From: Candidatus Krumholzibacteriales bacterium
GTDB taxonomy: Bacteria > Krumholzibacteriota > Krumholzibacteriia > Krumholzibacteriales > WJIX01
Direction: 5' to 3'
Assembly (NCBI GenBank): GCA_046483305.1
Contig: JAWODM010000014.1
Coordinates: 59,367-123,366 of the forward strand
DNA: 64,000 nt
The number at the start of each line of letters is the position of its first letter. Position 1 is the stretch's first letter. The translations under genes were made by a program, and so were the position numbers. A model generated the notes under the pieces. That model was not told the origin of the DNA and ran no database searches. It worked only from the letters and a program-made list of their open reading frames with translations. Of this stretch, positions 4,596 through 32,505 are shown one piece after another.

Positions 4596-5003
4596 GTGAC
4601 CGTATTCACCCATTTTTCTGCCGGGGCCCTGCTTGGCTATTTCTCTCCCGGGTTAGCTTTCGCCGCTTTCCTGGGGCTGTTGAGTCATCTGCTGCTCGAT
4701 TATCTGCCGCATTACGACTTTGAGAATGTATGGCTGGAAATATTATTGGGCTGCGCCGTTCTGGGCTTTCTTATAGCGGGCAGGAGCTGCACCGCTAATA
4801 TCTGTATGGGAGGACTGGTGGCGGTGCTGCCGGATGTGGAGAATCTGCTCTGGAAACTGGGAGCGATCAGGCGGGAGAGGCGGATATTTCCATCTCACAC
4901 CGGCCTGATACCCCACGGAAGGGAGGCCGGAAGACTCAATCTGGCGGCACAGGTTGTTTTCTCTGCCACTGTTGTTGGTTTCCTGCTTTGGAGTAATAAA
5001 TGA
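4596..5003 (+). CDS. YdjM-like membrane-bound metal-dependent hydrolase family protein
   Basis: Small polytopic membrane protein with FTHFSAG and SHLLLDYLPH motifs resembling the YdjM/DUF457 family. Its stop overlaps the next gene's start (ATGA at 5000-5003). Confidence 0.45.
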   Translation: MTVFTHFSAGALLGYFSPGLAFAAFLGLLSHLLLDYLPHYDFENVWLEILLGCAVLGFLIAGRSCTANICMGGLVAVLPDVENLLWKLGAIRRERRIFPSHTGLIPHGREAGRLNLAAQVVFSATVVGFLLWSNK

Positions 5004-8000
5004 AAAGATTAATGATCATAATACTTGTTTTTGCCGTATCCACCCCGGCGCTGAGCTCCGAGCCTCAGGTGAGGATTATAGATTCTGACGGCAGGGGAAT
5101 GGTTGTGGAGGTAACCAGCCCTCCTTACCGGAGAATCCCCGGGCCTGGCGGCCCGGCCAGCGGAGGAGAGATAATAGAAGTTCCCGGTTATGAATTGATT
5201 ATGGAAGAAGACAGGCCGGTGCTTCCTCGCCGCAGGCATCTGTTCTCGGTTGGTTCCGTCTCTGAGATAAAAGTAGAAGTTATTGAAACCGAAACGGAAA
5301 TAATTGAGGGCGCCAAACCTGCCATATTCCATTACGGTTTTGAAATCAATCAGAATTTATGGGAGGGGGCCGGAATCCTGCCCGAAAAGGATAACAGCTT
5401 TGTATTTCTCAGAAAAGCCGGACTATACAGGAAGAAACCCCTCGCCCTGGTAGAGGTCCGGCCGGTGATTTTCAATGAGGAAACGGGGCGGATGACATTC
5501 GCTTCCAGGATTTTATTCAGAATCTCTCACAGTTTCTCTGAGCCGGAAAGAGGAGCGGGCCTGCCCGGTTTCATACTGGGCGCAGGGGACGAAAGCCCCG
5601 TTTCGATAAGCAGGCCTGAAGCGCGGCATTCAGATTTCCAGTTTGGAGAATCAGATCAGTGGGTGAGGCTGGAAGTTCCGGAAACGGGGATATACAGGGT
5701 CGATTATGACGCCCTTCATGATAATGGAATAAACCTGATGGGGATCGATCCCTCCGGGATACGAATCTTCTCAGGGGGGCATTTCTCACAGAATACCAAT
5801 CTTTTTCAGCAGCCGGAGTCAGTCGTGGACGGGGGAAGTTTCAAACAGGATTACAGTATGTCCGAGCATGCCATAAGGCTGGTTGGGATGGAGGACGGCA
5901 CCTTCGATCCCGGCAACTATATTCTGTTCTTTGGCGTGGGAGTGGAAGGGTGGACTGATTATCTGGAACCTGAGGCGGAATCTCACGAACGTTACGACAA
6001 TCTCTACGAAAAGAATAATGTCTACTGGCTGAGCCTGGGAGGAAACTTCGCAGGCGAACCGGCCAGAATGGAATCTCTTGATACCGCCCCCTCCGGCAGC
6101 TCGCCGGAGAACACCATTGATTCCTATATCGAGAGGCTCCATCTGGAGGAGGACCGGGAATATTTCCCGCTTATCTCCGACGACAGATGGGTATGGGATT
6201 TCCTGGTATCCGGGGGGAATAAATCCACCAGAAAGGAATTCAGCGTTCATGATATCGTGAGCAGCGGCTGCAGAATCAGAACTATCGGTTTCGGGGGAAA
6301 GGACAGCGTAACCGACCTGGCCAGGTGTTATCTCAATGACGTCCTGGTGGGGGAAATGGCCTGGATCGGCTCCGACGGCAGTTTCAACCCCGATACCCTT
6401 GATGTCAACGTATCCTCACTCAGAGAGAGCAGCAACTACTTTGAATACCGGAAAACAGACAGCGGGATGGAGATGAATATATACTGGTATCAGGTTTTTT
6501 ACGAGAGGTACCTCAGGCCCGATCCCGATTCCGGAGATCTTGATTTTTCCGCTCCGGGCGCCGGCGGATCCACCCGTTTCATCCTCACGGAGTTTTTCGG
6601 AGAAGACCCATTTATCTTCGATGTTACCGACTATTACAATCCGGTATTACTGGAAGGAGCATATTCTTCCAATGATTCGGTGATCTTCGATTACGGGCTC
6701 GGCACATCTTCCGGGCATTTCATGGCGGTTACCCCTTCCGGCATAAAGGAACCCGGGATAGAGAATTCAGGCAGTATTCCTTCGTTGAGGGATGAACAGG
6801 CGCCTTCCTCCATGGTTGTGATATACCACGGCGCCTTCGAGGAAGCCGCTCTCGAGTATGTGGCGCACCGTTCCGGAAATAATTCTCCGGGTGTGATAAG
6901 GGCGGTGGATATAGACGATGTCTATAATAATTTCTCCGGCGGGCTGAAGGATCCCCTGGCAATAAGAAATTATCTGAAATACCTGTATGACAACTATTCA
7001 GAGGGCGGGGAACCGGCGATAGAATACGCCCTGCTGATGGGAAAGGGAACTTTCGATCCCAAGGATATCAAGGGGGCGGGGAAGGATTTCATTCCATTCT
7101 TCTACAGGACCGTGGGGGGATTTAATGTTTTCGTGGAATACGATGACTTCCTGGCCAGGCTGGACGACACCGGCGACGACTTCGTGGATATCGCCATGGG
7201 AAGGCTGCCCTTTCAGAATTCGCAGGGGGCGGGTAATTACATGGACAAGCTCCGGGGTTACGAAGCGGAAGATAACAACGGCGCCTGGAAGAATAAACTC
7301 ATATTCGTGGCCGACGATGAACATCAGGGAGACAGCCACACGCAGTTTGAGCATATGCAGCAGACCGAACGGATGAGTTCCAACGCAATTAAGCGGGATC
7401 ATTTCGATATCAGCGAAGTTTATCTTCACGAATATCCATTTGACGGTTCCACCAAACCGGAGGCCGCGGCGGCTCTCGCGGAGGAATGGAATGAGGGAGG
7501 TCTGCTGGTCTGTTATTTCGGACACGGTTCTCCATACCAGCTGGCGGACGAGCTGGTACTTAAGAAGTCAGATATATATTCTCTGAATAACGGTAACCGG
7601 CTGCCCCTGTTCCTGCCTCTTTCCTGTTCGGTGGGGGATCAGGAAAAGTTATATGATACATCCCTGTCGGAAGATCTGATCCTCGCCGAAGGAAGGGGGG
7701 CTATTGCCTCCATCGCGGCGGTGACCATAACACTGCCCACCTGGAATGAGGATATGTGCCGTCTCTTTCTGCTGAGGTTGTGGCCGGAGGGGACCCTTGA
7801 TTCCGAAACGGTGGGGAAGGCCCTGAGTTACGCTAAAATAAACAGCCTGACCGCGTATCCCTATATCCTTTCCGGCGACCCCTCCATGAAAATGGCAATG
7901 CCCGAGCTCAACGTCAGGCATGATTACTCCACCATCGACACCCTGGTTACCGGGTTCAGATACTCGGAGAGGGGTTCGGTAATGGTGGATGGCTCTCTTG

Positions 8001-8914
8001 ACCCCGGGTTCAACGGAACCGCCGAAATAATCGTTCGGGAAGCAGAAAAGCGGTTTGAAGTTAATAATTATGATTATAACCACGAGGGCGCGGTAATGTA
8101 CCGGGGAACCTCGGAGATAACCGGAGGTATATTCGATTTCCAGTTTGTAGTGCCTCTTCGCTGCAGGATAGGCGACCGGGCCAGGCTTAGAAGTTATGTC
8201 TACAGCGATGATTACCGTGACGGCGTGGGCGCCTGTGATACCCTCAGGATTATCCAGAATTCCACGCCTCCGGCAAACGACGGGCCTCCCAGAGTCAGCA
8301 TGTACTTCAACAATATGGCTACCAGGGTTAAAAAGGGCTCGCGGCTGTTTGTTGATATAGCTGATGATAACGGTATAGCCATACTGGGCAAGGATCCCCA
8401 GAATTCGATATTGCTGGAGTTCGATGACAGCGGATACCCCATACAGGTTACGGATTATTTCCAGTATGATCATAATTCATACACCAGCGGAGGGCTGGAA
8501 TACTCACTGAATGAGGATTTTGATATCGGAGACCACTCGGTTCTCCTGAGGGTATTCGACAATCTCGGGGAGATGTCGACCGATACCCTGAACTTCTCCA
8601 TAGTCGAAGAGGGGGTGCATAAGATAAGTGATGCCTTTAACTTCCCCAATCCGCTGAGTGAGAGCACCAATTTTGTCTTCCAGCTTACCTCGCCGGCGAA
8701 GGTGAAATTTGCGATTTATAATCTTTCCGGAAAGAAGATCTGGGAGAGAAGGATCAGCGCAGTGGAAGGATACAACAGCATTTACTGGGATGGAACGGAT
8801 TATGCGAATAATACTGTCGCTAACGGAACTTATATATACCTGATAGACGCGAAATTCCCCGGAACACTGGGACGAAACGAGAAAGTGAAGGGCAAGGTGG
8901 TAGTTCTCAAATAG
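5000..8914 (+). CDS. porU: PorU-like peptidase C25 (gingipain family) protein with T9SS C-terminal domain
   Basis: Signal peptide. C25-type catalytic dyad context: GHGSPYQ (~7520) followed by LPLSCSVGDQ (~7625). C-terminal ~85 aa (8657-8914) match the T9SS sorting-domain pattern (FNFPNPLSE...YNLSGKKI...NGTYIYLI). Sits immediately upstream of a PorV-like gene, the conserved PorU-PorV arrangement. Confidence 0.65.
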   Translation: MKRLMIIILVFAVSTPALSSEPQVRIIDSDGRGMVVEVTSPPYRRIPGPGGPASGGEIIEVPGYELIMEEDRPVLPRRRHLFSVGSVSEIKVEVIETETEIIEGAKPAIFHYGFEINQNLWEGAGILPEKDNSFVFLRKAGLYRKKPLALVEVRPVIFNEETGRMTFASRILFRISHSFSEPERGAGLPGFILGAGDESPVSISRPEARHSDFQFGESDQWVRLEVPETGIYRVDYDALHDNGINLMGIDPSGIRIFSGGHFSQNTNLFQQPESVVDGGSFKQDYSMSEHAIRLVGMEDGTFDPGNYILFFGVGVEGWTDYLEPEAESHERYDNLYEKNNVYWLSLGGNFAGEPARMESLDTAPSGSSPENTIDSYIERLHLEEDREYFPLISDDRWVWDFLVSGGNKSTRKEFSVHDIVSSGCRIRTIGFGGKDSVTDLARCYLNDVLVGEMAWIGSDGSFNPDTLDVNVSSLRESSNYFEYRKTDSGMEMNIYWYQVFYERYLRPDPDSGDLDFSAPGAGGSTRFILTEFFGEDPFIFDVTDYYNPVLLEGAYSSNDSVIFDYGLGTSSGHFMAVTPSGIKEPGIENSGSIPSLRDEQAPSSMVVIYHGAFEEAALEYVAHRSGNNSPGVIRAVDIDDVYNNFSGGLKDPLAIRNYLKYLYDNYSEGGEPAIEYALLMGKGTFDPKDIKGAGKDFIPFFYRTVGGFNVFVEYDDFLARLDDTGDDFVDIAMGRLPFQNSQGAGNYMDKLRGYEAEDNNGAWKNKLIFVADDEHQGDSHTQFEHMQQTERMSSNAIKRDHFDISEVYLHEYPFDGSTKPEAAAALAEEWNEGGLLVCYFGHGSPYQLADELVLKKSDIYSLNNGNRLPLFLPLSCSVGDQEKLYDTSLSEDLILAEGRGAIASIAAVTITLPTWNEDMCRLFLLRLWPEGTLDSETVGKALSYAKINSLTAYPYILSGDPSMKMAMPELNVRHDYSTIDTLVTGFRYSERGSVMVDGSLDPGFNGTAEIIVREAEKRFEVNNYDYNHEGAVMYRGTSEITGGIFDFQFVVPLRCRIGDRARLRSYVYSDDYRDGVGACDTLRIIQNSTPPANDGPPRVSMYFNNMATRVKKGSRLFVDIADDNGIAILGKDPQNSILLEFDDSGYPIQVTDYFQYDHNSYTSGGLEYSLNEDFDIGDHSVLLRVFDNLGEMSTDTLNFSIVEEGVHKISDAFNFPNPLSESTNFVFQLTSPAKVKFAIYNLSGKKIWERRISAVEGYNSIYWDGTDYANNTVANGTYIYLIDAKFPGTLGRNEKVKGKVVVLK

Positions 8915-9008
8915 TATCCTGAATCTTTCCGGGGAGCGGAATGTTTACTGCTTGACCGGGTAAGGTAACAATTATTATTTTAAGGTGGTATCAAAGAGAG
9001 GAAATGAT

Positions 9009-10007
9009 ATGAAAAAAATTACTGCAGCTTTGTTGTCAGTCTTAACAGCAATTCTTCTGATCCCCGCCGGCGATACCTTCGCTCAGGGACAGGCGGGAGC
9101 ATACTGTCTGAAGATAGCGCCCGGCGCAAGAGCTAATGGAATGGGTGGAAGCAGTGTGGCTATGGTCGAGGACGCTACCAGTCTCTGGTGGAACCCGGCC
9201 GGAATGTCCATGCTGGAATATTCAATGGCGGATATAATGCATACCAAACTGGTACCTACACTGGCCGCCGATGTTTTCTTTGAATATGCCGGCATAGTTC
9301 ACCACCTGGGTAGCGGGATCAGTGTGGGGTTCGCTTTTCAGTACCTCTCCTACGGCGAGTGGGTGGCCACCGATGAAGGCGGAGAAGAGCTCGGAAACGC
9401 CAGCAGTTACGAGATGTCTCCCATGGTAGGCGCCTCCATGAAACTGGGCGAGAATTTCAGCGTGGGTATGAACTTCAAGTTTGTATATATCGATCTGGCG
9501 CCGAAGTGGGCTACGGTGGAGGGAGAAGAAGGTGTGGGGCATTCCGTGGGCCTGGATATAGGATGCCTTTACAGGATCCCTGAATTCAGCTATGCCGGCT
9601 ACAGGGTAACCGGATTGCGGCTGGGAGCGGCCATATCCAACCTGGGGCCGTCCATTACCTATATCGACAGCGATCAGGCGGCCCCTCTGCCCCGGACCGT
9701 CAGGGTAGGGTTCGGTTATACCGCAGTCAGCAGCGAGCTGTTCGAGGTGAACGTGGCAGGTGACGTGGAAAGGCTGCTGATAGACGGAGATATCGATCCG
9801 ATATATCATGCCGGGAGTGAGTTCGTCTATACCGACCTTTTCGCGGTCAGAGTCGGTTATCTGTATGATAAGGACGGCGACGTCAAGGGTGTAAGCTACG
9901 GGCTGGGATTCAATATAAGCAACCGCATCAGGATTGATTACGGTAACGTTCCCCAGCATGAGGACCTTGACAGAGTGCACCGATGGTCACTGGGCCTTAA
10001 TTTCTAG
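9009..10007 (+). CDS. porV: PorV/PorQ-family T9SS outer-membrane shuttle protein
   Basis: Signal peptide, then the hallmark LKIAPGARANGMGGSSVAMVEDATSLWWNPAGM motif (GARxxGMGG...NPAG) of the PorV/LptO family. Size and composition fit a beta-barrel and the C-terminus is LNF. ATG at 9009 follows RBS GAGAGG. Confidence 0.7.
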   Translation: MKKITAALLSVLTAILLIPAGDTFAQGQAGAYCLKIAPGARANGMGGSSVAMVEDATSLWWNPAGMSMLEYSMADIMHTKLVPTLAADVFFEYAGIVHHLGSGISVGFAFQYLSYGEWVATDEGGEELGNASSYEMSPMVGASMKLGENFSVGMNFKFVYIDLAPKWATVEGEEGVGHSVGLDIGCLYRIPEFSYAGYRVTGLRLGAAISNLGPSITYIDSDQAAPLPRTVRVGFGYTAVSSELFEVNVAGDVERLLIDGDIDPIYHAGSEFVYTDLFAVRVGYLYDKDGDVKGVSYGLGFNISNRIRIDYGNVPQHEDLDRVHRWSLGLNF

Positions 10008-19487: not shown

Positions 19488-21126
19488 TCTGATGCTGTTT
19501 GCGCCGTCAGTTCTGAATGCCGGGCGGGCGGCCAGGGTGGAATATGCCGGTATCGACCTTCTTGATACCGGAAAGCTGAAGGCGGATTCCTACCTGAAGG
19601 AAGGCGGGCGGTTTTCCGATTCGCTTCTTTCCATGGAATTGCAGAGGCTCGATTCGCTCTATTTCAATATAGGTTACCCCGGAGCGGTTATTGATGCCGA
19701 TACCGCCGCCAGTGGCGATCAGTACCTGATAACCATATCGGTAAGCGAAGGCGGGCAGGCCAGTTTCGGTAAAGTCGCTGTTGCGGGTGATAACCCTGTT
19801 GAGGAAAAGGGAGGGATTTACAGCCTGAAGCGGGGCGAAGATTTCCTCCCCGGGAGAGTGGAAGAGGCCATGAAATTTACCCTTTTCTCGATGAACAGGG
19901 CCGGATTCCCCTATGCCCAGGTATGGATCACCGGATTCGACTATATCCGGGCCGATAATTCGGTGGATATATCCTTTTCCGTAGTTACCGGCGAGCGGAT
20001 GACGGCCTCGGAGGTGGTATTCGAAGGGATTTCATCCACCGACACCTCCACCGCCATGATAGCTTCGGGTTTCAGGAAGGGCAGGGAGTATGACGAAAAG
20101 ATGCTGATCTCGGTCAGAAACCGCCTGGAGGCGAGCGGCCTTTTCGAAGAGGTTCTCCCCGGAAGGGTAATCCGCAGGAGCAAAGGGGAGGTTGCCCTGG
20201 TGTTTCCGGTCAGGGAACAGGAGAGAAGAAACCTCTTCCGGGGGGCTTTCGGATTCTCCCGGAAGCAGAACGATGAATACGAAGTTAACGGGAATGTGGA
20301 ACTTGAGCTTAATAATATAGCGGGGACGGGCAGGGGGGCTGAATTCACCTGGATAAACGACGGCAGGGATTATTCCAGGACAGAGGTGAGCTATCTGGAA
20401 CCGTTTCTTTTCTCCAGGAACCTGTCCCTGGAAACCTCCCTGAGGCAGATTGTCAGGGATTCCCTCTACAATATGAGCAGCGGGAGCCTGAGGTTCAGGG
20501 CGCCTTTCGGCCCGGCCGGATTCAGGCTGTCGGTTTCCGCCTCCGCTGACAGGATCGTAATCCAGAACGACGTCGATCTGAGCAGGAGTTTCAGGCAGAG
20601 ATACGGCCTGGGCCTTGAGAAGAGTAGCGGTTCATATCTGAGGTTCGAGACCTCGCTGGAGGGAGGGCTCAGGAACAGTTACTACAAATTCCGGGATGAC
20701 GAGTCTGTCTGGCAGCTGCTGTATAACATTGAGGCCACCTCTGAGATGCCGACTTTCCGGGGCCAGAGCGCTTATCTCAGGGTGGTATCCGAGGGGATAT
20801 TCAGCGGTGGAGAAATACACCCGGCGGAGCTGTTTTCGGTGGGGGGAGCGAGATCGATCAGAGGCTACCGGGAGAACCAGTTCAGGGCCGAGCGGGCGTC
20901 CTACCTCAATCTGGAATACCGGCTGGGAAGAACCAGCAGGGTATTCCTGTTCAACGATACGGGGGTTATTTACCGAGAGGATACCGGCTGGGAGTTCAGG
21001 AACGGCGCAGGATTCGGCATAAGGTCGGTATCAGCGGTAGGAATCATCGAGCTGAGCTTCGGAATGGCGGAGCGCTTCTCCCTGGACGCCGCCAGAATAC
21101 ATGTGTCGCTGGTGGAGAGTTTCTAG
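19453..21126 (+). CDS. Omp85-family (BamA/TamA-like) outer-membrane protein with POTRA domains
   Basis: Signal peptide. N-terminal POTRA-like repeats. C-terminal surface-antigen barrel with FSVGGARSIRGYRENQF motif and terminal VESF. Overlaps the upstream gene by 35 nt. Confidence 0.65.
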   Translation: MRSRLKAGLIFSLMLFAPSVLNAGRAARVEYAGIDLLDTGKLKADSYLKEGGRFSDSLLSMELQRLDSLYFNIGYPGAVIDADTAASGDQYLITISVSEGGQASFGKVAVAGDNPVEEKGGIYSLKRGEDFLPGRVEEAMKFTLFSMNRAGFPYAQVWITGFDYIRADNSVDISFSVVTGERMTASEVVFEGISSTDTSTAMIASGFRKGREYDEKMLISVRNRLEASGLFEEVLPGRVIRRSKGEVALVFPVREQERRNLFRGAFGFSRKQNDEYEVNGNVELELNNIAGTGRGAEFTWINDGRDYSRTEVSYLEPFLFSRNLSLETSLRQIVRDSLYNMSSGSLRFRAPFGPAGFRLSVSASADRIVIQNDVDLSRSFRQRYGLGLEKSSGSYLRFETSLEGGLRNSYYKFRDDESVWQLLYNIEATSEMPTFRGQSAYLRVVSEGIFSGGEIHPAELFSVGGARSIRGYRENQFRAERASYLNLEYRLGRTSRVFLFNDTGVIYREDTGWEFRNGAGFGIRSVSAVGIIELSFGMAERFSLDAARIHVSLVESF

Positions 21127-21770: not shown

Positions 21771-22250
21771 CTACCGCCCCCCGTAGATTTTCTTCAGAAA
21801 GCCCCAGCTCACCTCGGCGCTTACCGTGCCGCTAGCGGGAGACACCTCGGCAACGTCGATGAAATCGCACGGCACGGCCAGTGTTCCCTGGCATACACGG
21901 GTGAAGGTGTGCCCCGCGACAAGGATCTCCTTGTCGATATACTGGCTCAGGTTTATCGAATCCGCCTCAAGGTAAAAGCTCTGTCGCGGCTCTCGCGCTT
22001 CGAGGTAATACTCTCCGCAAAAACAGATGCAGATCTCGGGCTTCGGCTGAAAGCGCAGATATCCTTTGGAGATGCAAATAGTATCATCACCGTTTATTAC
22101 TATTGACCGGTAATCTCCGGCGCCGGCTTCAGGCAATTCTGGTTCCCCGGACCTTACTCCATCGCCCGGTCCCAGAATCGATAACAGCAGCAGAGAGGTT
22201 GCTATCAGGAATACTTTCCGCAGATTGGTTATCGAATTGTAATCGCTCAT
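21771..22250 (-). CDS. hypothetical small secreted Cys-containing protein (159 aa)
   Basis: Signal peptide/hydrophobic N-terminus and a CxC...CxxC-type Cys cluster. Sits 63 nt downstream of the S8 protease gene on the same strand. Confidence 0.45.
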   Translation of the reverse strand: MSDYNSITNLRKVFLIATSLLLLSILGPGDGVRSGEPELPEAGAGDYRSIVINGDDTICISKGYLRFQPKPEICICFCGEYYLEAREPRQSFYLEADSINLSQYIDKEILVAGHTFTRVCQGTLAVPCDFIDVAEVSPASGTVSAEVSWGFLKKIYGGR

Positions 22251-22272
22251 TTCAATCTCACCCCGGTAAAGT

Positions 22273-22304
22273 CCGGGAGCCTCCCAAAGCGCGGAGGCTC
22301 CCGG
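22273..22304 (-). other. GC-rich 12-bp stem / 8-nt loop hairpin in the protease-to-small-gene spacer
   Basis: ccgggagcctcc (22273-22284) is a perfect reverse complement of ggaggctcccgg (22293-22304). No following U-tract on either strand. Confidence 0.4.
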
Positions 22305-22313
22305 TAATTGTTC

Positions 22314-25300
22314 TCACCTCAATAGAACCATCTTCTTCGTTATCTTGACATCTTCGGTCACGAACCTGGCGAAGTAGATGCCTGTCGCGACCGCCGAGCC
22401 GTTGTCATTAGTCCCTTTCCACTGGAACTCGTGAATTCCGGGTTCCTTCATCCCCTTGAAGACCTTTTTGACCAGTCTTCCTTTCACATCGTAGATCTTC
22501 AGGGACACCTGCCGCTGATCTCCGGCCGGCAGTCCGAAACGGATAGTGGTGACAGGGTTGAACGGGTTCGGATAGTTCTGCCACAGCGTGAACTTTTCGG
22601 GTATCACGTTGTCGCTGTCGCCGACCGCTTCTCTGCCGTCGGCATCCATGGTGATGGTACCTGAAGCTGTGGCCATCCAGTCGAGTGCGCGGTCGAGGAT
22701 CTCCGCACGCCGCGTCTCTTCCTGGATGTAAGTGAAGTTGAAGGTGAAGTAGACCGAAACATGATTGGGACCGATGTACCTCACCGCTGCCGCTGAATCC
22801 GGCCCGGAGGGGGTCATCGGCCACAGTTTCGAATCCCACTCTTTACCTTCCTTGCTGTAGAAGGCGGACATTTCCTCCCTCGATTCGAACATGTCAAGAG
22901 ACGATCCTGTTCCGCTCCACTTGTAAATTACCTGGCCTCCCGAATAGGTGGTGGACAGTTTGACCTCGTCGGGATAGGAGCCCTGAATTGTAAAGGTCTC
23001 GCCGGCGCCTATGGGATCTCCAGGCGTGCTCGAGATCTGTCTCCAGCCCGGGTCGTCCTTGACGTACGCGGTTCCGGTGTACTGCTCCATCCAGGATCTG
23101 GCTGTGGATCCATAGGAGAGGTCTCTGCCGAGGAACCAGATCTTCTGACTTTCACCATCGGAGGCGCTCAGGAAAGCTCCCAGGGTGTCCATCTGGGTGG
23201 TGCTGAGATACCAGGACTCGTCCACTATGACTGCGTCATAGGAATGAAGTATGGCGGTCGCAGGAACTCCAAGTTCGTCCCAATCCCAGATATCCGCGGT
23301 CCGTCCAGCGGCGGTGAAGGCCTGCTGGAAGACTTCGGGAGCGGTATGACCGGCGCCTCCAAGCAGCACCAGGATATCGCCAGAAGGCATGATGCCGAAC
23401 TCATAGTAAGAAGCGGGAGCTCCGGCCGGATCGAACGACGTGTTCGCGCCGTCGTCCTCCGCCTCCAGATACAGTCTTATCCTGGTTCCGGAAGCCTGCC
23501 CGGGGATGTCGCCTGAATACTCGTCGGGATTACCGGTCGGCGACATGGCCACCGCATTCCAGGTGCCGCCCTCGTTGATGCTGTAATGCAGCTGCACCGA
23601 AGAAACTTCGCCCAGGGCGTCGATCACTTCCGTGGTAACAGTGTACGGGCCTGTAGTATCGAACGTTGAAGATGGCACCGTGGTCGACACAAAGTTGGGA
23701 CCTTCTGTGTCTTCGGCGCCCATTATGCTGACGTCATCGATATACCATCCGACCTTGTTGACCCACGAATCGCTTCCGAAATGGAACCTGATGATGACCT
23801 CCTGTCCCTTGTAGGGTGTAAGGTCGCAAGTCACCTGGTGCCAGTTATCATTGTTGTATCCGGTGAAGCACGGTTCGTTCGGTATGCCCGCGTTGTAGCT
23901 CTTGGCCGTTCCGTTATAACCGATATCCGGAGTGAGTATCGACCAGGTGCTTCCTCCGTCGGTGGAAATCTTTATGTTCCCTCCGTCGTAGTTGGTCTCG
24001 ATATAGTACCACTGCCAGAAGGTCAGCATAGCGTAGGAGCTGCCCGCTGGAACTATGACCTCGGGCGTCTCCAGCTTGGAGTTCGAGCTGGAAGAATAGG
24101 TGCCGCCGACCTGTGTCGCCCAGAGGTTGACCCCTGAATTAGCTCCGTCGGGTCCGGTGGTGGGTTCGCCCCATTCCCAGTCGCCTGTCGAGCTGAATCG
24201 GCCGTCAGTAGCTTCGAAATCCCAGGTGTAATAGTCCACGATCTCGAAGGAATGGTATCCGGATTCCGGTTCTCTTGCCGTATTGGGAACGGCCGCTGCA
24301 TCCCGAGCTCTTATATAGTAGTTGAACACATCGCCCAGAGCGGCCGGTCCGGGAATATCTCCCGTGTAGAGGTCTCCTCCGGCGTTTGTCATGGTGATGG
24401 TAGTGTTGGCGCCGCCGTTCTTGTTGTATGTGAGGAATACCCCGGCTGGATCGACACCCACATTGTCGGTCACAGTAGCCTCTACCGTGTAGGGGCCTGT
24501 CTCGTCCGGCGTATTGGGCAGTGGATAGTGGACTATCTCCGGAGGAGTTATATCCGCTGTCACCTCGAACGAATGCTGTACATCCGGCGCTCCCGACGGA
24601 TGGAAGCTGGTGTTTCCGTCGGTGTTGGTGGCGCTGATGTAGTAATGTACGGTAGTGCCGTAGGATTGCGGAGGTATATCCGCTGAGTATTCGTCCGGGT
24701 TGGCCGTGGGGTTCATCTGCAGGCTAACCGGTCCCGCACCGGCGTCGTAGATCAGGTTGATCCGGTTGGGGTCCAGATACTCGGAGTACACGTTGGCGGC
24801 TACGGTGTAGGTGCTCAAGGTGTCTTCGGTATCATGAAGCGGTTCGTGCAGGATCTCCGGGGCGGCGAACCACTTGAGTGTCCTGTCGATGATGCCCGCC
24901 CTTCTCCACGGTTCCTGGATGTAGTTGAAGTTGAAGGTGAAGTACACAGAACGATATTTATCGCCGTTGTACTTGATTCCGGCGGCCGCGTCTATGCTTT
25001 GCGGATCGTGCGGCATCACGCCGTCCCATTCCTTTCCGGCCTTCTGGTAGGTCCCGGCAATCTCCTCTCTGTCAAGGTACGTACCTTCTCCGGTGTACTG
25101 GTAGACAAGCACGCCGCCCGGATAGGCCTCGCTGCGTTGAGTCTCGTCAGGATACGAACCGGAGATTACGAAGGTCTCATTGGCTCCGATCGGTTCGCCG
25201 GGCGCTCCGGTGAGTTCGCGGTATCCGGGATTGTCCTGGACGTAGGCCGCCCGCATGTACTGTTCTATCCAGGGCCTGGTCGAGGAGTAGAATCCCAGAT

Positions 25301-28300
25301 CGCGTCCCAGCAGGAACAGCTTCTTCTTGGCTTCGCTGGTTCCGCTCTCCAGGAAGGCCGCCAGATCGTTCTGCTCGGTGGTGGTGAGACTGCCCGTTTC
25401 GTCGAGTACGATCACCTTGTAAAGACCAAGCTGTTCCGGAGTTAGCCATCCCTGATCGTAGTGGTTCCAGTAATCGGCCTGGTGGCCGTTGGCTTGGAGC
25501 GCCTCGCGGAACATCTCGAGAGGCGTTCCGTAGTTTGTCCCGATCATAACCAGCACGTCCGCCGAAGGCAGTATGGCGAATTCGTGCGTATCATCGGGCG
25601 CGCCGGCGGGATCGAAGCTTACGTTCTCCTCCGAGGAGGTATCCACCGCCTTGATATAGAATTTGACCTTGGTCCCGTTCGCCTGGCCGGGTATGTCGCC
25701 GGACCATTCGTCTCCGGAAACCAGAGTCATGGGGATTTCCATGAAAGAGGCTCCATCGTCCACCGAGTAGAAGATGGATACACCCGCCACGTCCGAAAGC
25801 GGATCCATAACGTGAGTTGCCACGGTGTACGGCCCGGTATTGTCGAAGGTGCTGGGAGGCACTTCCGTACCGCTTATGACCGGCGGAAAATTATCCGCCG
25901 ACGAACTTCTGACCATCACGTCGTCGATGTACCAGCCAGGTTTGTAAACGCTTCCGTCGCTTCCGAAGTGGAAGCGGAATATCACCTCTGATCCGGCGTA
26001 TGAGGAGACGTCGAACAGCTCCTTCTGCCAGAACTGGTTGTCATACCCGGTAAAGCAGTCCTCTCCGGGTATACCGGCGTTTCCGCTTCGCGCGGTTCCG
26101 TCATACCCTCCCATGGGGGTGAGTACCGTCCAGGTCTCTCCTCCGTCGGTGGAGACCTTGACGTTACCGCCGTCGTAATTTGTTTCAATGGAGTACCAGT
26201 GCCAGAACGACAGCATGGCGTAAGGCTGGCTGGCATCCAATGTAATCGGGATAACATCCAGAGTGGCGTTGGACGAATTTGGATAATTGTCTTCCAGGCC
26301 GGTAGCCCAGACGTTCTCTCCCGAATTCGCTCCGCCTGGTCCGGTGGTGGGGGGACCCCATTCCCAGACATCGCCGCTCTGGACGAATCCGCCGTCGTCG
26401 GGCTCGAAATCCCACAGGAAGTACTCCACTATCTCGAAGCTGTAGGTCCCGTTTTCGGGAACTCGTGCGACGTTGCCGTGATACGATTCATCCATAGCCA
26501 GGATGTAGTAATCATAAATGTCCCCGACCTCGGAAGGCCCTGGGATCGCTCCCTGGTATGATCCGTCTCCCATCAGAGTCATCGACTGCCTGTGGAACAT
26601 GCCTCCGTTCTTCGAGTACATCAGAAAGACCGATTCGACTCCCAGGTTGTCCTCGATAAGGGCTTCCACATAGTAAGGCCCTTTAAGGTTATTGGTGTCG
26701 TAATGCCTCTGGTGAGTAACGGCTGGAGCTTCTTCGTCCCAACCTACGGTGAAGGTATGGACGTTCACTGGAGCTCCGATCGGATCGGTTGTGGTATGCC
26801 CTTCAACGTCCGAAGCGGTCAGGTAATAGGCCACTTCCGTGCCCAGGGGCTGGGCCGGAATGCTGGCCGAATATTCATCTGGAACTCCGGTTGGTTCCAG
26901 TGGCACCGTAACCGGTCCCGCCCCGGCGTCGTAGATCAGGGCGAAGGTTGAGGGATCCAGATCAAAGTAGCTGGATGTTATGTACGCCGTGACCGGATAC
27001 GGGTCGGTGGTGTTCTCGGTGCTGCTGAGCGGAGTATGGGCGATATCCGGGTATCCCAGAAGCCAGTCCAGTATCCTTCCCATCATTCCGTGACGGTCGG
27101 CCTCATTGTCTATCGCTTCGAATCCGAAGGCGAAATAGACCAGCTTGTAGGTCCCGTTATCCACAGACAGGGCCGCCGTTCCGGAGCTACTGATGGAACC
27201 GGCTCCGACATCGCCTTTGGACATGTCGTGAGCGGAGACCGCTCCACTGGGAACCGCCTCATCATAGAAGAGAGCCGATATCGCCGGATAGACGGGATCT
27301 ATCTCGGAAGGATAGCCCTGGTTATTGGCTCCGTCGCCTCCCTCTATGCCGAAGGAGAATCCGGCGCCGACCGGGCTGCCTTCTGATCCGGCTACCCCGC
27401 CAAGCCCTACGTCGTCCTGCACGTATTCGGCGTGGAGGTAATTAGAGTAAAAGTCCTCATCCTTGATATCGTATCCGATATCCTGGCCTGATATGAAGAG
27501 CCGTCCTCCCCCATCCAGATACGCCGCGATATTGGACTGATCATCGGCTGAAAGCGTAGTGGTGTAATCGTTTCCTGTCAGCCAGACCACCGATTCGAAC
27601 ATCGACATCTCGGCGGCGCCGGGCGGAGTCGATACTGTCAGGTAAGACCTTCCAGCCGCCGTGATGGCGTCCTCGTACCAGGTCTGGAACGAACCGCCTC
27701 CGTCGTCATCGACCAGGAGGACCTGGGCCGCTCCAAGCTGGATGTCCTGAGTGGTGATCATGCCTTCCAGGACTTCCACTCCGGTAACTGTAGTGGCCGG
27801 ATAGGGGAAAACGGGCGAATAGACCAGGTCGTAGGTGCCCACCGGCAGCGTTATGCTGTATTCGCCTGTTACCGGGTCGGTGCTGCTCCAAACTACCGCT
27901 TCTCCCGCCAGCCTGACGGAAATATCCGCTTCTATTCCTCCTCCTGAATTCTCGTCGGTTACGTACCCGGCGATAGTGCCGGAAGGAAGCTGATTCAGCG
28001 TAACATCAAAGGTCGTCGTCTCGTCGGCCGTTATTGTGACAATATCCGTCCCCGTCTCGTATCCGAACCTTGAGATCTCTATCGGATGGCTTCCGGCGAC
28101 TGCCTGCATACTGAATGTTCCGTCCGGACCGGAGTATACTTTCTGTCCGGTGTCGGTCAGTATTATCATCGCGTTCTCGACGGTTCCTCCCACCGAACTG
28201 TATATGGTCCCCTCCAGGGTTCCCACGCCGGAGAGCGCCGCGGTCACAGCGGCGTAGGCATTGACCCGCCCCCAGCCGTAGGTGTTATCCATTCCTGGAT

Positions 28301-29678
28301 CGCCCAGTTCCAGGGCGGTCTGAGCGACCAGCTGCTTGGCAATCTCGACATCGATGGTGGGATTCGCCTGATACATCAGGGCGGCTGTTCCCGCCATATG
28401 GGGAGCCGCCATGGAGGTTCCGCTCCATTCGAATCCCGCTCCGTACCACTGCCAGTCGCCGCCCGGAACGGAGGAATAGATCTTGACTCCGGGAGCGGAG
28501 ATATCCGGCTTGGTGTACGTTCCGACATACGGCGGATCGTTCCATGTTACCGGCCCGCGGCTGGAGAAACTCGCGATCACGTCAGAGCTATCCGTCGCTC
28601 CGACTCCGAAAGCGCTGGGAACGTTACCCGGACTGCCCGTGGTGGCGGACCCCGGCCCCGCGTTACCTATCGATATCGCGGGAAACACGTTGGCAGCTAT
28701 CATGTTATCAACAGGCGTAATCATAGCCGAATGGGTCCCGGTCGCGCCCAGCGACATATTCACGATATCGCATCCGTCATCTGTGGCGGGGTCGCCGTCG
28801 GGATCGATGATCCATTCCATCCCGCCGATGACCTGGGCGAACGTTCCGCTTCCGCCGGGGAGGACCAGGGCGTGCATCAGCTGAGCGCCCGGAGCCACGC
28901 CGATATCATACCCGCTGGCGTTGCCGCCTATCATGGTTCCCGAGGTATGAGTGCCGTGTTCGTCGGAATCGTGAGGCACCGAACCCGGGACTATATTTCC
29001 GTCCGAGTCGAACTCCGCCCATCCTCCCGGATAGGTTGGATCCGACGGATTACTGGTCACCATCTTCCCTGAAAGATCGGGATGGCTTATGTCCACTCCG
29101 GTGTCGATTCCTCCGATAACAACTCCGGTTCCGTTCAGTCCGTAACTCGACCAGACCTGTTTTGCTCCGATCTTATCAATCGAGTCCCAGAGCTGGTTCT
29201 GGCTCTGTTGCAGAAGAGGCCTGCTGCTTTCCTCTTGCGGGGGAAGCGTGACTGTGAAGTTCTCGAACACTTCCAGCACGTCGGGCCTTTCGGCGAGCTG
29301 TGTGATTACCTCTGGTTTGGCCCGGACCAGCACCAGGTTATCCAGCCAGAACTGTCTTATCTTCTTTACTTTGGGGGATACCCCGGTTGACTTGAGAAAC
29401 CTGACAAGTTGCGCCTGGCTTCTGCGCTTGGTATCCCTCAGCTTGTTCATCACTGCCGGCCCGTTGCCTCTGATCAGCTGGATGTCGGCAGTTTCCTTCA
29501 TCTTTACTATTGCGGTTACTTCACCTGTAGCTCCGGCCGCCTCTATCTGCGTCCTGAGCTTCGGGCTGATCCTGACCTTTTTGCCTTCCTCGGCGTCCGC
29601 CGAATTCAAGGAAGGGAGCACCAGGAGCAGGACCAGAAAAAGCGCCGCACAGCTGAAACGTCTTATACTTGAAAACAT
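22314..29678 (-). CDS. giant (2454 aa) subtilisin-like S8 serine protease, multidomain T9SS cargo
   Basis: Signal peptide. S8 catalytic triad context: Asp (GGIDTGVD), His (HGTHTSGT) and Ser (GTSMAAPHMAG), roughly nt 28256-29171. Two carboxypeptidase-regulatory-like beta-sandwich segments. Two ~730-aa tandem modules each containing a MAM/choice-of-anchor-J-like segment (WEWG...ANSG...FWHWYSIETNYDGGNVKVSTDGG). C-terminal T9SS sorting domain (YPNPFNP...KIYDVKGRLV...GIYFARFV, nt 22314-22586). Confidence 0.8.
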   Translation of the reverse strand: MFSSIRRFSCAALFLVLLLVLPSLNSADAEEGKKVRISPKLRTQIEAAGATGEVTAIVKMKETADIQLIRGNGPAVMNKLRDTKRRSQAQLVRFLKSTGVSPKVKKIRQFWLDNLVLVRAKPEVITQLAERPDVLEVFENFTVTLPPQEESSRPLLQQSQNQLWDSIDKIGAKQVWSSYGLNGTGVVIGGIDTGVDISHPDLSGKMVTSNPSDPTYPGGWAEFDSDGNIVPGSVPHDSDEHGTHTSGTMIGGNASGYDIGVAPGAQLMHALVLPGGSGTFAQVIGGMEWIIDPDGDPATDDGCDIVNMSLGATGTHSAMITPVDNMIAANVFPAISIGNAGPGSATTGSPGNVPSAFGVGATDSSDVIASFSSRGPVTWNDPPYVGTYTKPDISAPGVKIYSSVPGGDWQWYGAGFEWSGTSMAAPHMAGTAALMYQANPTIDVEIAKQLVAQTALELGDPGMDNTYGWGRVNAYAAVTAALSGVGTLEGTIYSSVGGTVENAMIILTDTGQKVYSGPDGTFSMQAVAGSHPIEISRFGYETGTDIVTITADETTTFDVTLNQLPSGTIAGYVTDENSGGGIEADISVRLAGEAVVWSSTDPVTGEYSITLPVGTYDLVYSPVFPYPATTVTGVEVLEGMITTQDIQLGAAQVLLVDDDGGGSFQTWYEDAITAAGRSYLTVSTPPGAAEMSMFESVVWLTGNDYTTTLSADDQSNIAAYLDGGGRLFISGQDIGYDIKDEDFYSNYLHAEYVQDDVGLGGVAGSEGSPVGAGFSFGIEGGDGANNQGYPSEIDPVYPAISALFYDEAVPSGAVSAHDMSKGDVGAGSISSSGTAALSVDNGTYKLVYFAFGFEAIDNEADRHGMMGRILDWLLGYPDIAHTPLSSTENTTDPYPVTAYITSSYFDLDPSTFALIYDAGAGPVTVPLEPTGVPDEYSASIPAQPLGTEVAYYLTASDVEGHTTTDPIGAPVNVHTFTVGWDEEAPAVTHQRHYDTNNLKGPYYVEALIEDNLGVESVFLMYSKNGGMFHRQSMTLMGDGSYQGAIPGPSEVGDIYDYYILAMDESYHGNVARVPENGTYSFEIVEYFLWDFEPDDGGFVQSGDVWEWGPPTTGPGGANSGENVWATGLEDNYPNSSNATLDVIPITLDASQPYAMLSFWHWYSIETNYDGGNVKVSTDGGETWTVLTPMGGYDGTARSGNAGIPGEDCFTGYDNQFWQKELFDVSSYAGSEVIFRFHFGSDGSVYKPGWYIDDVMVRSSSADNFPPVISGTEVPPSTFDNTGPYTVATHVMDPLSDVAGVSIFYSVDDGASFMEIPMTLVSGDEWSGDIPGQANGTKVKFYIKAVDTSSEENVSFDPAGAPDDTHEFAILPSADVLVMIGTNYGTPLEMFREALQANGHQADYWNHYDQGWLTPEQLGLYKVIVLDETGSLTTTEQNDLAAFLESGTSEAKKKLFLLGRDLGFYSSTRPWIEQYMRAAYVQDNPGYRELTGAPGEPIGANETFVISGSYPDETQRSEAYPGGVLVYQYTGEGTYLDREEIAGTYQKAGKEWDGVMPHDPQSIDAAAGIKYNGDKYRSVYFTFNFNYIQEPWRRAGIIDRTLKWFAAPEILHEPLHDTEDTLSTYTVAANVYSEYLDPNRINLIYDAGAGPVSLQMNPTANPDEYSADIPPQSYGTTVHYYISATNTDGNTSFHPSGAPDVQHSFEVTADITPPEIVHYPLPNTPDETGPYTVEATVTDNVGVDPAGVFLTYNKNGGANTTITMTNAGGDLYTGDIPGPAALGDVFNYYIRARDAAAVPNTAREPESGYHSFEIVDYYTWDFEATDGRFSSTGDWEWGEPTTGPDGANSGVNLWATQVGGTYSSSSNSKLETPEVIVPAGSSYAMLTFWQWYYIETNYDGGNIKISTDGGSTWSILTPDIGYNGTAKSYNAGIPNEPCFTGYNNDNWHQVTCDLTPYKGQEVIIRFHFGSDSWVNKVGWYIDDVSIMGAEDTEGPNFVSTTVPSSTFDTTGPYTVTTEVIDALGEVSSVQLHYSINEGGTWNAVAMSPTGNPDEYSGDIPGQASGTRIRLYLEAEDDGANTSFDPAGAPASYYEFGIMPSGDILVLLGGAGHTAPEVFQQAFTAAGRTADIWDWDELGVPATAILHSYDAVIVDESWYLSTTQMDTLGAFLSASDGESQKIWFLGRDLSYGSTARSWMEQYTGTAYVKDDPGWRQISSTPGDPIGAGETFTIQGSYPDEVKLSTTYSGGQVIYKWSGTGSSLDMFESREEMSAFYSKEGKEWDSKLWPMTPSGPDSAAAVRYIGPNHVSVYFTFNFTYIQEETRRAEILDRALDWMATASGTITMDADGREAVGDSDNVIPEKFTLWQNYPNPFNPVTTIRFGLPAGDQRQVSLKIYDVKGRLVKKVFKGMKEPGIHEFQWKGTNDNGSAVATGIYFARFVTEDVKITKKMVLLR
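22668..27038 (-). repeat. internal tandem duplication inside the S8 gene, two ~2.19-kb units (aa 881-1610 and 1611-2337)
   Basis: Collinear motifs recur at a constant ~730-aa offset: IYDAGAGP 916/1644, WEWG 1105/1834, FRFHFGSD 1234/1964, FTFNF 1581/2311. The unit boundary is near nt 24848/24849. Confidence 0.75.
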
Positions 29679-29733
29679 TTTCTTTCCTTTCTGTGCTGAG
29701 CGCCGGCCTCGCTACCGCGCGCCGGCTGCTTTC

Positions 29734-30504
29734 TTAGCTCTTTTTCGTCTTGACGTCCTTGGTCTTTTTCAGGATCTCGAAGTAATTTATCTCAAAATCT
29801 TCGTACTCTCCGTAGATGCACTCTCCATCCGGGCTCGTGTCGGGGTCGTCGTAAGACAACACTCCCCGCGCCCAGACCTTGGTCTCTAGCCGTTCGTTGC
29901 CTTCGGACATTCCATAAAGCAGAGCGGCATCGGGAACCAGGAACATGGTCATATAACTGATTTTCAATACAGCTTCATCCGTCGGGAAATAATCCTGCAG
30001 ATTGATGGACTCGCAGATCATCTTCTCGTTCTGCCCCCAACTATTGTCCTGGTTCCAGTCCACCCAGAGTGAGACAGTAAGGTCCTTTTCGAATTCGCTG
30101 GCTAGCCGGCTGCTGGCATTGGGTATGTTAATATCCCACCATACCAGAGCCCATTTATTGGGAAGCCAGAGATTGGCGTTCACGAACCAGATTCCGTCGC
30201 AGTCATCCGCGGATGCCCCCAGCTGTTCAATTCCCTTTTCCTTCATGTCGATCGTGGGATATGGATCAGGAGCGGGACCGGGAGTGATCCCGGGGGGCAG
30301 GATCTCATCTTCTGATACAGTCTGGATCTCGCCGGACTGCAGAAACGTCTGCAGATCAATTACATTTGAAGGCAAGTTCTCCTGGATCAGATAGATGGAT
30401 TTTCCTGCCGGTTCCTCCAGGGCCATTTCCTGGGTGTGGAGGATGGAAAAGGAAAGAAGCAGACAGAGGAGGCACATGAACAGTAAGCTCAGTTTGTTGC
30501 GCAT
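29734..30504 (-). CDS. hypothetical secreted protein (256 aa), possibly GEVED-like
   Basis: Signal peptide. Trp-rich central region, GEYEDFEINYF near the C-terminus and a Lys-rich tail. Sits 55 nt upstream of the S8 gene on the same strand. Confidence 0.4.
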   Translation of the reverse strand: MRNKLSLLFMCLLCLLLSFSILHTQEMALEEPAGKSIYLIQENLPSNVIDLQTFLQSGEIQTVSEDEILPPGITPGPAPDPYPTIDMKEKGIEQLGASADDCDGIWFVNANLWLPNKWALVWWDINIPNASSRLASEFEKDLTVSLWVDWNQDNSWGQNEKMICESINLQDYFPTDEAVLKISYMTMFLVPDAALLYGMSEGNERLETKVWARGVLSYDDPDTSPDGECIYGEYEDFEINYFEILKKTKDVKTKKS

Positions 30505-30840: not shown

Positions 30841-30869
30841 ATTGTAAAGTAGAATTTAGTAAATGTCAA
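30841..30869 (-). promoter_or_regulatory. sigma-70-like promoter on the minus strand (TTGACA - 17 nt - TACAAT) facing the 256-aa/S8/159-aa operon
   Basis: The reverse complement of 30841-30869 reads ttgacatttactaaattctactttacaat. A second TATAAT (reverse complement of 30815-30820) lies just downstream. Confidence 0.45.
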
Positions 30870-32442: not shown

Positions 32443-32505
32443 ACGGCTGACCGGCTGAACTGATGTTTGAAAATTATTCCAGTTGATATACAGGGGGCGG
32501 TGTGA

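Follow-up and report, generated by a model that had tools for sequence, protein, structure and literature searches.

Our analysis revealed a giant gene for a secreted protease in the 64,000-nucleotide stretch of Krumholzibacteriales DNA examined here (the window). The reading we favour, with a probability of roughly 0.7, is that its product is a subtilisin-family endopeptidase exported via Sec and T9SS, that it carries non-catalytic α/β domains and two five-domain modules derived from one old duplication, and that it works in the steps proposed below. The gene occupies positions 22314..29678 of the minus strand, and the open reading frame list and translation give an ATG start and bear out the 2454 amino acids of the initial annotation. 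A protein from an NCBI metagenome-assembled genome (P0001) is 100% identical and is named 'S8 family serine peptidase [Candidatus Krumholzibacteriales bacterium]'.

All parts of the protein described in this and the next paragraph are encoded on the minus strand. The hydrophobic N-terminus was read from the sequence as a Sec signal peptide (residues 1-29, 29592..29678) with a putative cleavage site between LPSLNSADA and EE, and this region is helical with low pLDDT in the structural model. It is followed by an I9-like propeptide (residues ~30-160, 29199..29591) and by the Peptidase S8 catalytic domain (28233..29198), which matches the Peptidase_S8 profile (PF00082) over residues 183-470 and profile positions 1-288 of 288, with 172.9 bits against a cut-off of 21.8. 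The Asp-His-Ser triad of S8 peptidases occurs in order as D192 (GIDTG), H241 (HGTH) and S422 (GTSMA), and the oxyanion hole is represented by N339 (IGNAG). Among 78 sequences the three triad residues are invariant and N339 is nearly so (at least 90%). With its triad intact, the product is predicted to be an active subtilisin-family endopeptidase. The S8 domain is also the most conserved part of the protein among orthologues (78% mean identity) and, since the catalytic residues are intact as well, catalysis appears to be under the strongest selection. Two CarboxypepD_reg (transthyretin-like) β-sandwich domains come next (residues 483-648, 27735..28232), matched by PF13620 in two stretches within residues 487-645 at 45.4 bits (cut-off 32.3), as expected from the previously claimed order of an S8 domain and two carboxypeptidase-regulatory-like domains.

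Ahead of the modules lies α/β0 (residues 649-880, 27039..27734), a GATase1-like (ThuA/GIFT-fold) domain with the motifs VDDD, G-Q-D-I-G and GANNQxYPxE, which appears to be the third and oldest copy of its kind. The motif VLLVDD...GGRLFISGQD, which had been assigned to each of the two modules, was found here instead, at residues ~653-733, while the α/β domains of the modules carry VLVMIG...LFLLGRD and ILVLLG...IWFLGRD. Module A (residues 881-1610, 24849..27038) consists of two Ig-like domains (881-982 and 983-1085), an InhA-type MAM domain (1086-1262), another Ig-like domain (1263-1372) and a GATase1-like α/β domain (1373-1610). Module B (residues 1611-2337, 22668..24848) is borne out by BLASTP, has the same domains in the same order, and shows Pfam matches to MAM and Reelin_subrepeat-B. 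Each module had been described as three segments; the MAM and α/β parts of that description hold, but the count does not, and five domains are seen from an AF2 model (pLDDT 89.9) and from an alignment of the six Ig-like domains. The segment described as Greek-key-like comprises two β-sandwiches, and a third β-sandwich is located between the MAM and α/β domains. The remaining segment had been called MAM/choice-of-anchor-J-like. It has the MAM jelly-roll fold, and InhA-like_MAM (PF20773) matched in two stretches with 88.7 bits, above its cut-off, while the choice-of-anchor J model NF038128 gave a borderline 28.9 bits, below its cut-off of 30, so that InhA-like_MAM appears to describe the region better. 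The isolated Ig-like domains had no Pfam match, and a sequence search of the PDB with module A returned as its sole match the Ig-like domain of the P. gingivalis peptidylarginine deiminase (E 0.085).

The protein ends in a T9SS type A C-terminal sorting domain (CTD; residues 2366-2454, 22317..22583, minus strand), in agreement with the initial annotation. Over residues 2369-2451 of 2454 it scored 33.7 bits with TIGR04183 (cut-off 23) and 30.0 bits with PF18962 Por_Secre_tail (cut-off 27), and a FlgD_ig match of 43.7 bits was also detected at the C-terminus. The window additionally encodes the T9SS sortase PorU (5000..8914, plus strand; Peptidase_C25; NF033707 543.5 bits, cut-off 420) and a PorV-family outer-membrane shuttle protein (8985..10007, plus strand; NF033709 210 bits, cut-off 90), the latter reaching 146 of the required 250 with the equivalog model for PorV, NF033710. 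Both genes are 13-17 kb away from the subtilase gene. T9SS machinery was judged by PorU and the PorV-family protein; together with a CTD above the curated cut-offs, these two genes support a putative T9SS type A cargo.

By analogy with RgpA and Kgp, the protein might also be a polyprotein that is cut at its domain borders after export, with the modules kept on the surface in a non-covalent complex of adhesin and protease. We consider this unlikely. The borders showed no conserved cleavage motif, and the junctions between domains are short and well conserved, in contrast to the linker preceding the CTD (residues 2338-2365), which shows only 34% identity among orthologues. Such processing would be compatible with our main explanation and would differ from it in the end product.

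The α/β domains were compared with each other and with known folds. α/β0 is the more divergent one, sharing 25-28% identity with the copies in modules A and B (E 3e-15 and 1.6e-10). In the model, the domains show the three-layer class I glutamine-amidotransferase-like (ThuA/GIFT) fold of the GATase1 superfamily and resemble known GIFT domains (the GldG/IFT52/OST48/S1P group). The best structural matches were STM3548 (2gk3), ThuA-like proteins, the GIFT domains from IFT52 and OST48, and the trimerisation domain of GH42. Pfam and NCBIfam contained no matching family at E ≤ 0.1, the best being DUF4159 (E 0.13). The position equivalent to the nucleophile elbow, as judged by sequence pattern, reads G-Q-D-I-G, G-R-D-L-G and G-R-D-L-S in the three copies instead of G-x-C-x-G; no Cys or His is common to all three and the Cys-His-Glu triad is absent. 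With the catalytic Cys missing, the domains are predicted to be non-catalytic as class I glutamine amidotransferases.

A different possibility is that all three α/β domains are active hydrolases or amidases that accompany the S8 domain and use Asp or another unusual nucleophile. The fold class is rich in enzymes (GATases, PfpI/DJ-1, peptidases S51 and C26), an Asp is present at the elbow of every copy, and YPDE retains its D and E in all of 67 orthologues. We nevertheless regard a multi-enzyme protein as rather improbable, given the absent triad, an H749 in α/β0 that is not retained in the module copies, closest structural neighbours that are non-catalytic or uncharacterised, and sequence searches that led to no enzyme family. 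The strictly conserved acidic motifs VDDD, GQD and YPxE could serve to bind metals or sugars, or to catalyse a reaction, instead of belonging to a pure scaffold.

A second gene appears to belong to the system. It is located at 29734..30504 on the minus strand, stops 55 nt before the subtilase gene begins, and encodes a conserved protein of 256 amino acids with a signal peptide, a C-terminal GEVED domain (PF20009, 29.2 bits) and no CTD. The gene was found immediately upstream and co-oriented in 15 of 15 orthologous loci, whereas the other neighbours vary. Its family has only 54 members, all of 153-263 amino acids, whose signal peptides terminate at A-x-A-type sites and have no lipobox Cys, indicating an ordinary signal peptide and not that of a lipoprotein. 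A profile of 25 members retrieved no PDB chain at E ≤ 1, potempins included, and NCBIfam contained no matching family. Upstream of the partner gene, a consensus scan detected a promoter-like TTGACA-17-TACAAT with 11 of 12 matches (30841..30869, minus strand), from which partner and subtilase might be transcribed as a two-gene operon; it is weak evidence, since such sites are no more frequent in the region than in shuffled sequences. Likewise, a 12-bp G+C-rich hairpin 10 nt past the subtilase stop codon (22273..22304, no strand assigned) may mark the transcript end, but it has no clear T-run and is weak evidence for this reason. The GEVED gene, the third and older α/β copy, and the presence of PorU and PorV in the window had escaped the initial annotation.

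The pair could be extended into a more far-reaching picture, in which the GEVED protein and the subtilase form a new cognate regulator-protease system. Here α/β0 would pack on the S8 domain in the way the GIFT domain does in S1P, activation would be governed by the small protein, which would inhibit the enzyme or displace the propeptide (compare potempins and SPRING), and the GATase1-like domain that recurs in big secreted subtilases across several phyla would constitute a new ligand-binding family with a conserved acidic site. We offer this as speculation that is probably wrong in its full form. The partner also bears on the idea that the subtilase serves mainly in structure or adhesion, forming a surface fibril or attaching to particles or prey, with proteolysis being secondary: the GEVED domain was originally described from fibrillar adhesins (PMC10952558), non-catalytic Ig-like, MAM or α/β sequence makes up about 1700 of the 2454 residues of the subtilase, and the closest solved homologue by sequence, Vpr, was deposited in a fibril form (8jmw). 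The S8 domain, however, exceeds all other parts in conservation and keeps its catalytic residues, which makes a primarily adhesive role very unlikely.

The duplication of the modules is evident from direct comparison. Residues 881-1610 and 1611-2337, which had been proposed as two collinear copies, align in BLASTP as one collinear HSP (1-725 against 1-726) with 49.7% identity over 733 columns, 15 gaps and 684 bits. The corresponding Smith-Waterman score was 1868, compared to 53.6±8.0 (maximum 83) for 100 shuffles, and domain by domain the copies are 46-59% identical. BLASTP of the whole protein against itself returned the identity match only, and the relationship was seen after splitting the protein. 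A self dot-plot had been suggested as a check, with an off-diagonal expected at ~2.19 kb; nucleotide self-comparison indeed gave off-diagonals at offsets of 2184-2193 nt, or about 730 amino acids, in patches only and with 67-84% identity, consistent with the predicted constant offset of 729-730 residues and moderate conservation. Identity at the three codon positions was 60%, 70% and 41%, and four-fold sites of identical residues were 38% identical against 30% expected from composition. Synonymous sites thus appear to be nearly saturated. An assembly artefact, in which a repeat was mis-expanded or collapsed or two genes were joined, might be suspected for a contig from a metagenome-assembled genome but is refuted in practice, because copies that are about 67% identical in DNA, and this in patches, are too divergent for an assembler to collapse or expand, the reading frame stays open across the A/B junction, and 70 independent assemblies from different sources, two of which are one-contig records listed as chromosomes (4.1 and 4.3 Mb), contain the same two-copy protein.

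All of the 70 full-length orthologues (2380-2490 amino acids, mostly labelled Krumholzibacteria) carry module A followed by module B at the same positions. Among them, A copies share a mean identity of 62.8% (minimum 51.5) and B copies of 62.9% (minimum 52.8), whereas A and B are on average 47.1% identical between proteins and 48.0% within one protein. In neighbour-joining trees, A was monophyletic in 26 of 30 bootstraps and B in 30 of 30, and the B clade was still recovered in 29 of 30 when a 48%-identical lineage (P0076/P0077) was included. The two copies evolve at equal rates, and orthologue trees and identities gave no sign of gene conversion between them. All domains in both copies are 58-69% conserved among orthologues, so that neither copy is decaying. 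Taken together, the two-copy orthologues, the separate clades, the equal rates and the lack of conversion indicate that the duplication is old and has been maintained, in line with the in-frame event suggested beforehand.

For an outgroup, the Ig-Ig-MAM-Ig cassette of T9SS M14 carboxypeptidases was used. It is equidistant from A and B (35-42% identity), and the split between S8 modules and M14 cassettes was found in 20 of 20 bootstraps. This supports A and B as probable mutual closest relatives, sisters with respect to the M14 cassette; the direction and date of the duplication are read solely from the trees. Among the best 150 of 9509 representatives, coverage of a whole module was confined to the family itself, and no single-module relative from before the duplication was found. 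Two shorter proteins considered as such, P0074 (1754 amino acids) and P0078 (1685 amino acids), enter module B and have out-of-frame-looking tails, and were set aside as truncations. A protein of 2074 amino acids with ~30% identity (P0083, on the contig of locus L020) seems to combine module A with a second module lacking a recognisable MAM; it roots inside the A clade and was rejected as a clean outgroup. Locus L018, with a module of 35% identity, was left out because of its broken reading frames.

On this basis we propose that the modules arose by a single intragenic tandem duplication of ~2.19 kb that would predate the divergence of the known family members, and that purifying selection has since acted equally on both, with no gene conversion between them. 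The precursor would fold in the periplasm together with its propeptide, where the presumably co-transcribed GEVED-domain protein may act as a dedicated partner, either inhibitor or chaperone, by analogy with the potempins and Aeromonas ORF2. The CTD would route the protein through the T9SS pore, and PorU would then cut the CTD off, leaving the enzyme bound to the surface or released. The ten-domain arm would keep the catalytic head distant from the cell, and may offer two MAM-type binding sites and three α/β domains to polymeric substrates or particles. The resulting peptides would feed amino-acid catabolism. We infer that the enzyme resides at the surface, that its MAM and α/β domains serve in binding and that the partner acts as described.

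Krumholzibacteria are uncultivated, and our literature search found nothing specific on their peptidases. The giant subtilase is among the largest and best conserved of their secreted proteins and is probably central to their attack on polymeric protein in sediments and soils. It is a clean case of a 730-residue, five-domain unit that was duplicated within a gene and whose copies are equally constrained lineage-wide, and it can be used for studying how very large surface enzymes grow. The dedicated partner protein of ~250 amino acids and the extracellular GATase1-like domain, which recurs in big subtilases without family assignment, are uncharacterised pieces. T9SS multi-domain proteases with repeated accessory domains are already well known. 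The protein with its duplicated modules does not overturn current ideas; its anatomy is sound and unsurprising.

Among such proteases, the gingipains RgpA and Kgp and other multi-domain T9SS cargo proteases of Bacteroidota are C25 cysteine peptidases in which the repeat is a single domain, as opposed to the five-domain module described here, and no homology with the gingipains was shown outside the fold. Human S1P (MBTPS1, 8uw8), whose S8 domain is braced by a GIFT subdomain (PMC11231238), has the same domain order, but no rigid-body match was found beyond S8. STM3548, a Planctomyces GATase1-like protein (3rht), ThuA-like proteins and DUF4159, all of unknown function, have the GATase1-like fold in common with the α/β domains at 12-14% identity, whereas the latter have no Pfam family and are predicted to be extracellular and embedded in a protease. 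Potempin genes are located immediately upstream of T9SS peptidase genes and are co-transcribed with them (PMC9890683). The partner gene resembles the potempin/KLIKK-peptidase operons of Tannerella forsythia in its position directly ahead of a T9SS peptidase gene and in the same orientation, but potempins are lipoproteins of 98-132 residues, whereas the partner is larger, has a GEVED domain, is not a lipoprotein and lacks a sequence match in the PDB. A further analogue proposed for subtilase and partner is the serine protease ASP of Aeromonas sobria with its chaperone ORF2. The T9SS M14 zinc carboxypeptidases from metagenomes (P0138, P0141, P0163 and others) combine the Ig-Ig-MAM-Ig cassette, over ~490 residues, with a T9SS CTD, but differ in having another catalytic domain, one cassette and no α/β domain. 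Bacillopeptidase F-like S8 proteins of Bacillota (P0103 'bacillopeptidase-like protein', P0107 of Thermicanus aegyptius) share with the subtilase an S8 domain followed by β-sandwiches and two MAM domains, with 32-38% identity to module residues ~85-435 and 39-46% in the second MAM. These proteins are 1760-1850 amino acids long, without the GATase1-like α/β domains and the T9SS CTD, and their two MAM domains are located outside any duplicated five-domain unit.

Our analysis revealed an intact subtilase gene on the minus strand (29678 to 22314, ATG start) encoding a giant protein of 2454 residues with a predicted signal peptide and type IX secretion (T9SS) C-terminal sorting domain (CTD). Pfam and NCBIfam profile searches identified a Peptidase_S8 domain (residues 183-470), two CarboxypepD_reg domains (residues 487-645), two InhA-like MAM domains, one in each of two modules, and a FlgD_ig/Por_Secre_tail C-terminal domain (residues 2369-2451). 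The S8 catalytic residues D192, H241, N339 and S422 are present and conserved. The initial annotation had proposed an old in-frame duplication of a moderately conserved module with an offset of about 2.19 kb, and the coordinates it gave for modules A (residues 881-1610) and B (1611-2337) were correct, since both align collinearly in a single BLASTP alignment (733 columns, 49.7% identity, 15 gaps, 684 bits). The Smith-Waterman score between the modules was 1868 as compared to 53.6±8.0 for 100 shuffles. In a DNA self-comparison, off-diagonal matches occurred only at offsets of 2184-2193 nt, in patches that are 56-538 nt long and 67-84% identical. The duplication is thus real, and that interpretation was right, but the domain content is richer than had been described. 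Modelled with AF2 (pLDDT 89.9), module A comprises five domains, namely two β-sandwiches (residues 881-982 and 983-1085), a jelly roll (1086-1262), a third β-sandwich (1263-1372) and an α/β domain (1373-1610). The six β-sandwiches of both modules align as one family, for which a Pfam search returned no matching model. The α/β domains of the two modules (α/βA and α/βB) share 46% identity, whereas each is only about 25% identical to a third copy preceding the modules (α/β0, residues 649-880). The duplicated unit is therefore Ig-Ig-MAM-Ig-α/β and not α/β-Ig-Ig-MAM-Ig, in agreement with the repeat frame chosen initially.

Several observations speak for a high age of the duplication and against an artefact. 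Identity between modules A and B at codon positions 1, 2 and 3 is 60%, 70% and 41%, and four-fold sites of identical residues are 38% identical versus 30% expected from base composition, which indicates that synonymous sites are close to saturation. An identical protein comes from a 'Candidatus Krumholzibacteriales' MAG at NCBI, and searches of NCBI, ENA, JGI and Logan assemblies recovered about 75 near-full-length relatives (2380-2490 aa, 56-84% identity). Module A is followed by module B at the same positions in all 70 full-length proteins analysed; a single-module precursor was not found among the relatives. In an alignment of 144 modules, mean identity was 62.8% between A modules (minimum 51.5), 62.9% between B modules (minimum 52.8) and 47.1% between A and B (range 40-54). 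The mean A-B identity inside one protein (48.0%) is essentially equal to the between-protein value. These figures show equal rates of change in A and B and no concerted evolution. The two copies form separate clades in neighbor-joining bootstraps (A monophyletic in 26/30, B in 30/30, and B in 29/30 once modules of the distant P0076/P0077 lineage, whose proteins are 48% identical, were included). As outgroup we used a homologous cassette, the Ig-Ig-MAM-Ig stretch of M14 carboxypeptidases, which was split from the S8 modules in 20/20 bootstraps and is equidistant from A and B (35-42% identity), so that A and B are seen as sister copies from an intragenic duplication. Judging by these trees, the duplication is older than all family members found. 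Among orthologues, conservation was 58-69% for every domain of A and B and 34% for the linker before the CTD; by this measure neither copy is decaying and both appear equally constrained. Scanning GTDB with one genome for each species added at least 14 further species representatives with a full module (52-70% identity); among the matches listed, five were labelled Krumholzibacteriota or Krumholzibacteriia, and the remaining ones 'Latescibacteria', 'Latescibacterota', 'Patescibacteria group' or just 'bacterium'.

The S8-CarboxypepD_reg-α/β core occurs without modules in further large secreted subtilases, for example P0080, P0081 and P0084 (labelled Elusimicrobiota), P0096, P0111 and P0086, and P0239 (3934 aa) combines S8 with MAM-Ig-α/β. 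The Ig-Ig-MAM-Ig cassette is common to different peptidase classes, as it is found in T9SS M14 zinc carboxypeptidases (P0138-P0146, P0161, P0163, from metagenomes), and bacillopeptidase F-like enzymes of Bacillota contain Ig-MAM pairs. It thus seems that the giant protein was built from parts circulating among secreted peptidases, with the tandem duplication as the sole lineage-specific step. One relative of 2074 aa (P0083 in locus L020, labelled 'Candidatus Eisenbacteria', ~30% identical) contains module A and an apparent second module without recognisable MAM, and might represent either an intermediate or a derived state.

The three α/β domains are GATase1-like, and no Pfam family covers them. 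Conservation is highest in α/β0 (67.5% versus 59-60%), whose motifs VDDD, G-Q-D-I-G and GANNQxYPxE show no variation across 67 orthologues, while α/βA and α/βB kept G-R-D-L-G and the D-E of YPDE and lost VDDD. G-[QR]-D-[IL]-G is shaped like the nucleophile elbow of GATases, G-x-C-x-G, except that Asp replaces Cys, and the alignment contains no His common to all three copies. These domains are therefore regarded as probably non-catalytic, with a conserved acidic site as putative ligand site. Further large secreted S8 peptidases (P0239, P0086, P0096, P0080, P0081, P0084) also contain such a domain, usually directly after CarboxypepD_reg.

A partner gene (29734-30504, minus strand, 256 aa) lies upstream of the subtilase gene, its end 55 nt away from the subtilase start, and encodes a signal peptide and a GEVED domain, which was originally described from the fibrillar adhesin CshA (PMC10952558). 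In three loci retrieved by exact protein match (L001 5156-5896, L002 4229-4963, L003 4239-4988), one of them from the P0077 lineage, a homologue of about 245 aa is encoded directly upstream on the same strand, while all other neighbours differ. The partner gene was present in 15/15 orthologous loci with enough upstream DNA and absent next to more distant subtilases, and is strictly linked to the giant subtilase gene. Its family comprises 54 proteins among 5.8 billion searched, all of 153-263 aa, with no match in the PDB. Several of these proteins come from contigs equal in length to contigs with subtilase orthologues. Tentative signals are a near-consensus promoter-like site before the partner gene (30869-30841) and a G+C-rich hairpin after the subtilase stop codon (22273-22304).

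A T9SS route for the giant subtilase is supported by plus-strand genes predicted to encode a PorU sortase (5000-8914; NF033707, 543.5 bits, cut-off 420), a PorV-family protein (8985-10007) and an M6-like T9SS cargo protein (10034-13258), the latter scoring 233 bits and thus well below the cut-off of 600 of the 'inactivated M6' equivalog model. Plus-strand genes for histidine utilisation, a urocanase (35022-36683) and an imidazolonepropionase-like amidohydrolase (36780-38066), would be in keeping with a lifestyle of amino-acid consumption but are no proof of it. A 1122-aa ORF that matches neither Pfam nor NCBIfam models extends into the beginning of the gene for a POTRA/Omp85 protein (19453-21126; pair 16119-21126, plus strand), a layout that recalls a TamB/TamA-type pair. 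ThiC (31114-32442, plus strand) is overlapped on the opposite strand by a 503-aa ORF (31516-33027) without family match that is probably spurious. The giant subtilase is the main minus-strand gene, with 29 of 31 other long ORFs checked on the plus strand, and along the window GC skew and AT skew become negative only over this gene (22001-30000).

We propose that periplasmic folding of the precursor would involve an I9-like propeptide, with the partner protein serving as inhibitor or chaperone, and that T9SS export would be followed by CTD removal by PorU, leaving the mature enzyme attached to the surface or released. The ten-domain arm would act as a spacer that offers polymeric substrates two MAM binding sites.

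Among T9SS proteases, multi-domain forms with repeated accessory domains are well known, and the giant subtilase is of this kind; the partner protein and the GATase1-like domain are the parts of the system that merit follow-up. Human S1P is ordered as propeptide, S8, β-sandwich and GIFT subdomain, the latter packing on S8 loops and stabilising the oxyanion-hole Asn (PMC11231238). Residues 1-880 of the giant subtilase share this domain order, which is the level at which the likeness is shown, and hypothetically α/β0 might likewise buttress the S8 catalytic domain. For the gene pair, the nearest precedent is given by the potempin/KLIKK-peptidase operons of Tannerella forsythia, whose small upstream genes are co-transcribed with those of T9SS peptidases and code for inhibitors specific to the latter (PMC9890683). 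The partner is larger than potempins, not a lipoprotein and without detectable similarity to them, and a possible role as cognate inhibitor, or else as chaperone, of the giant subtilase is suggested by analogy only.
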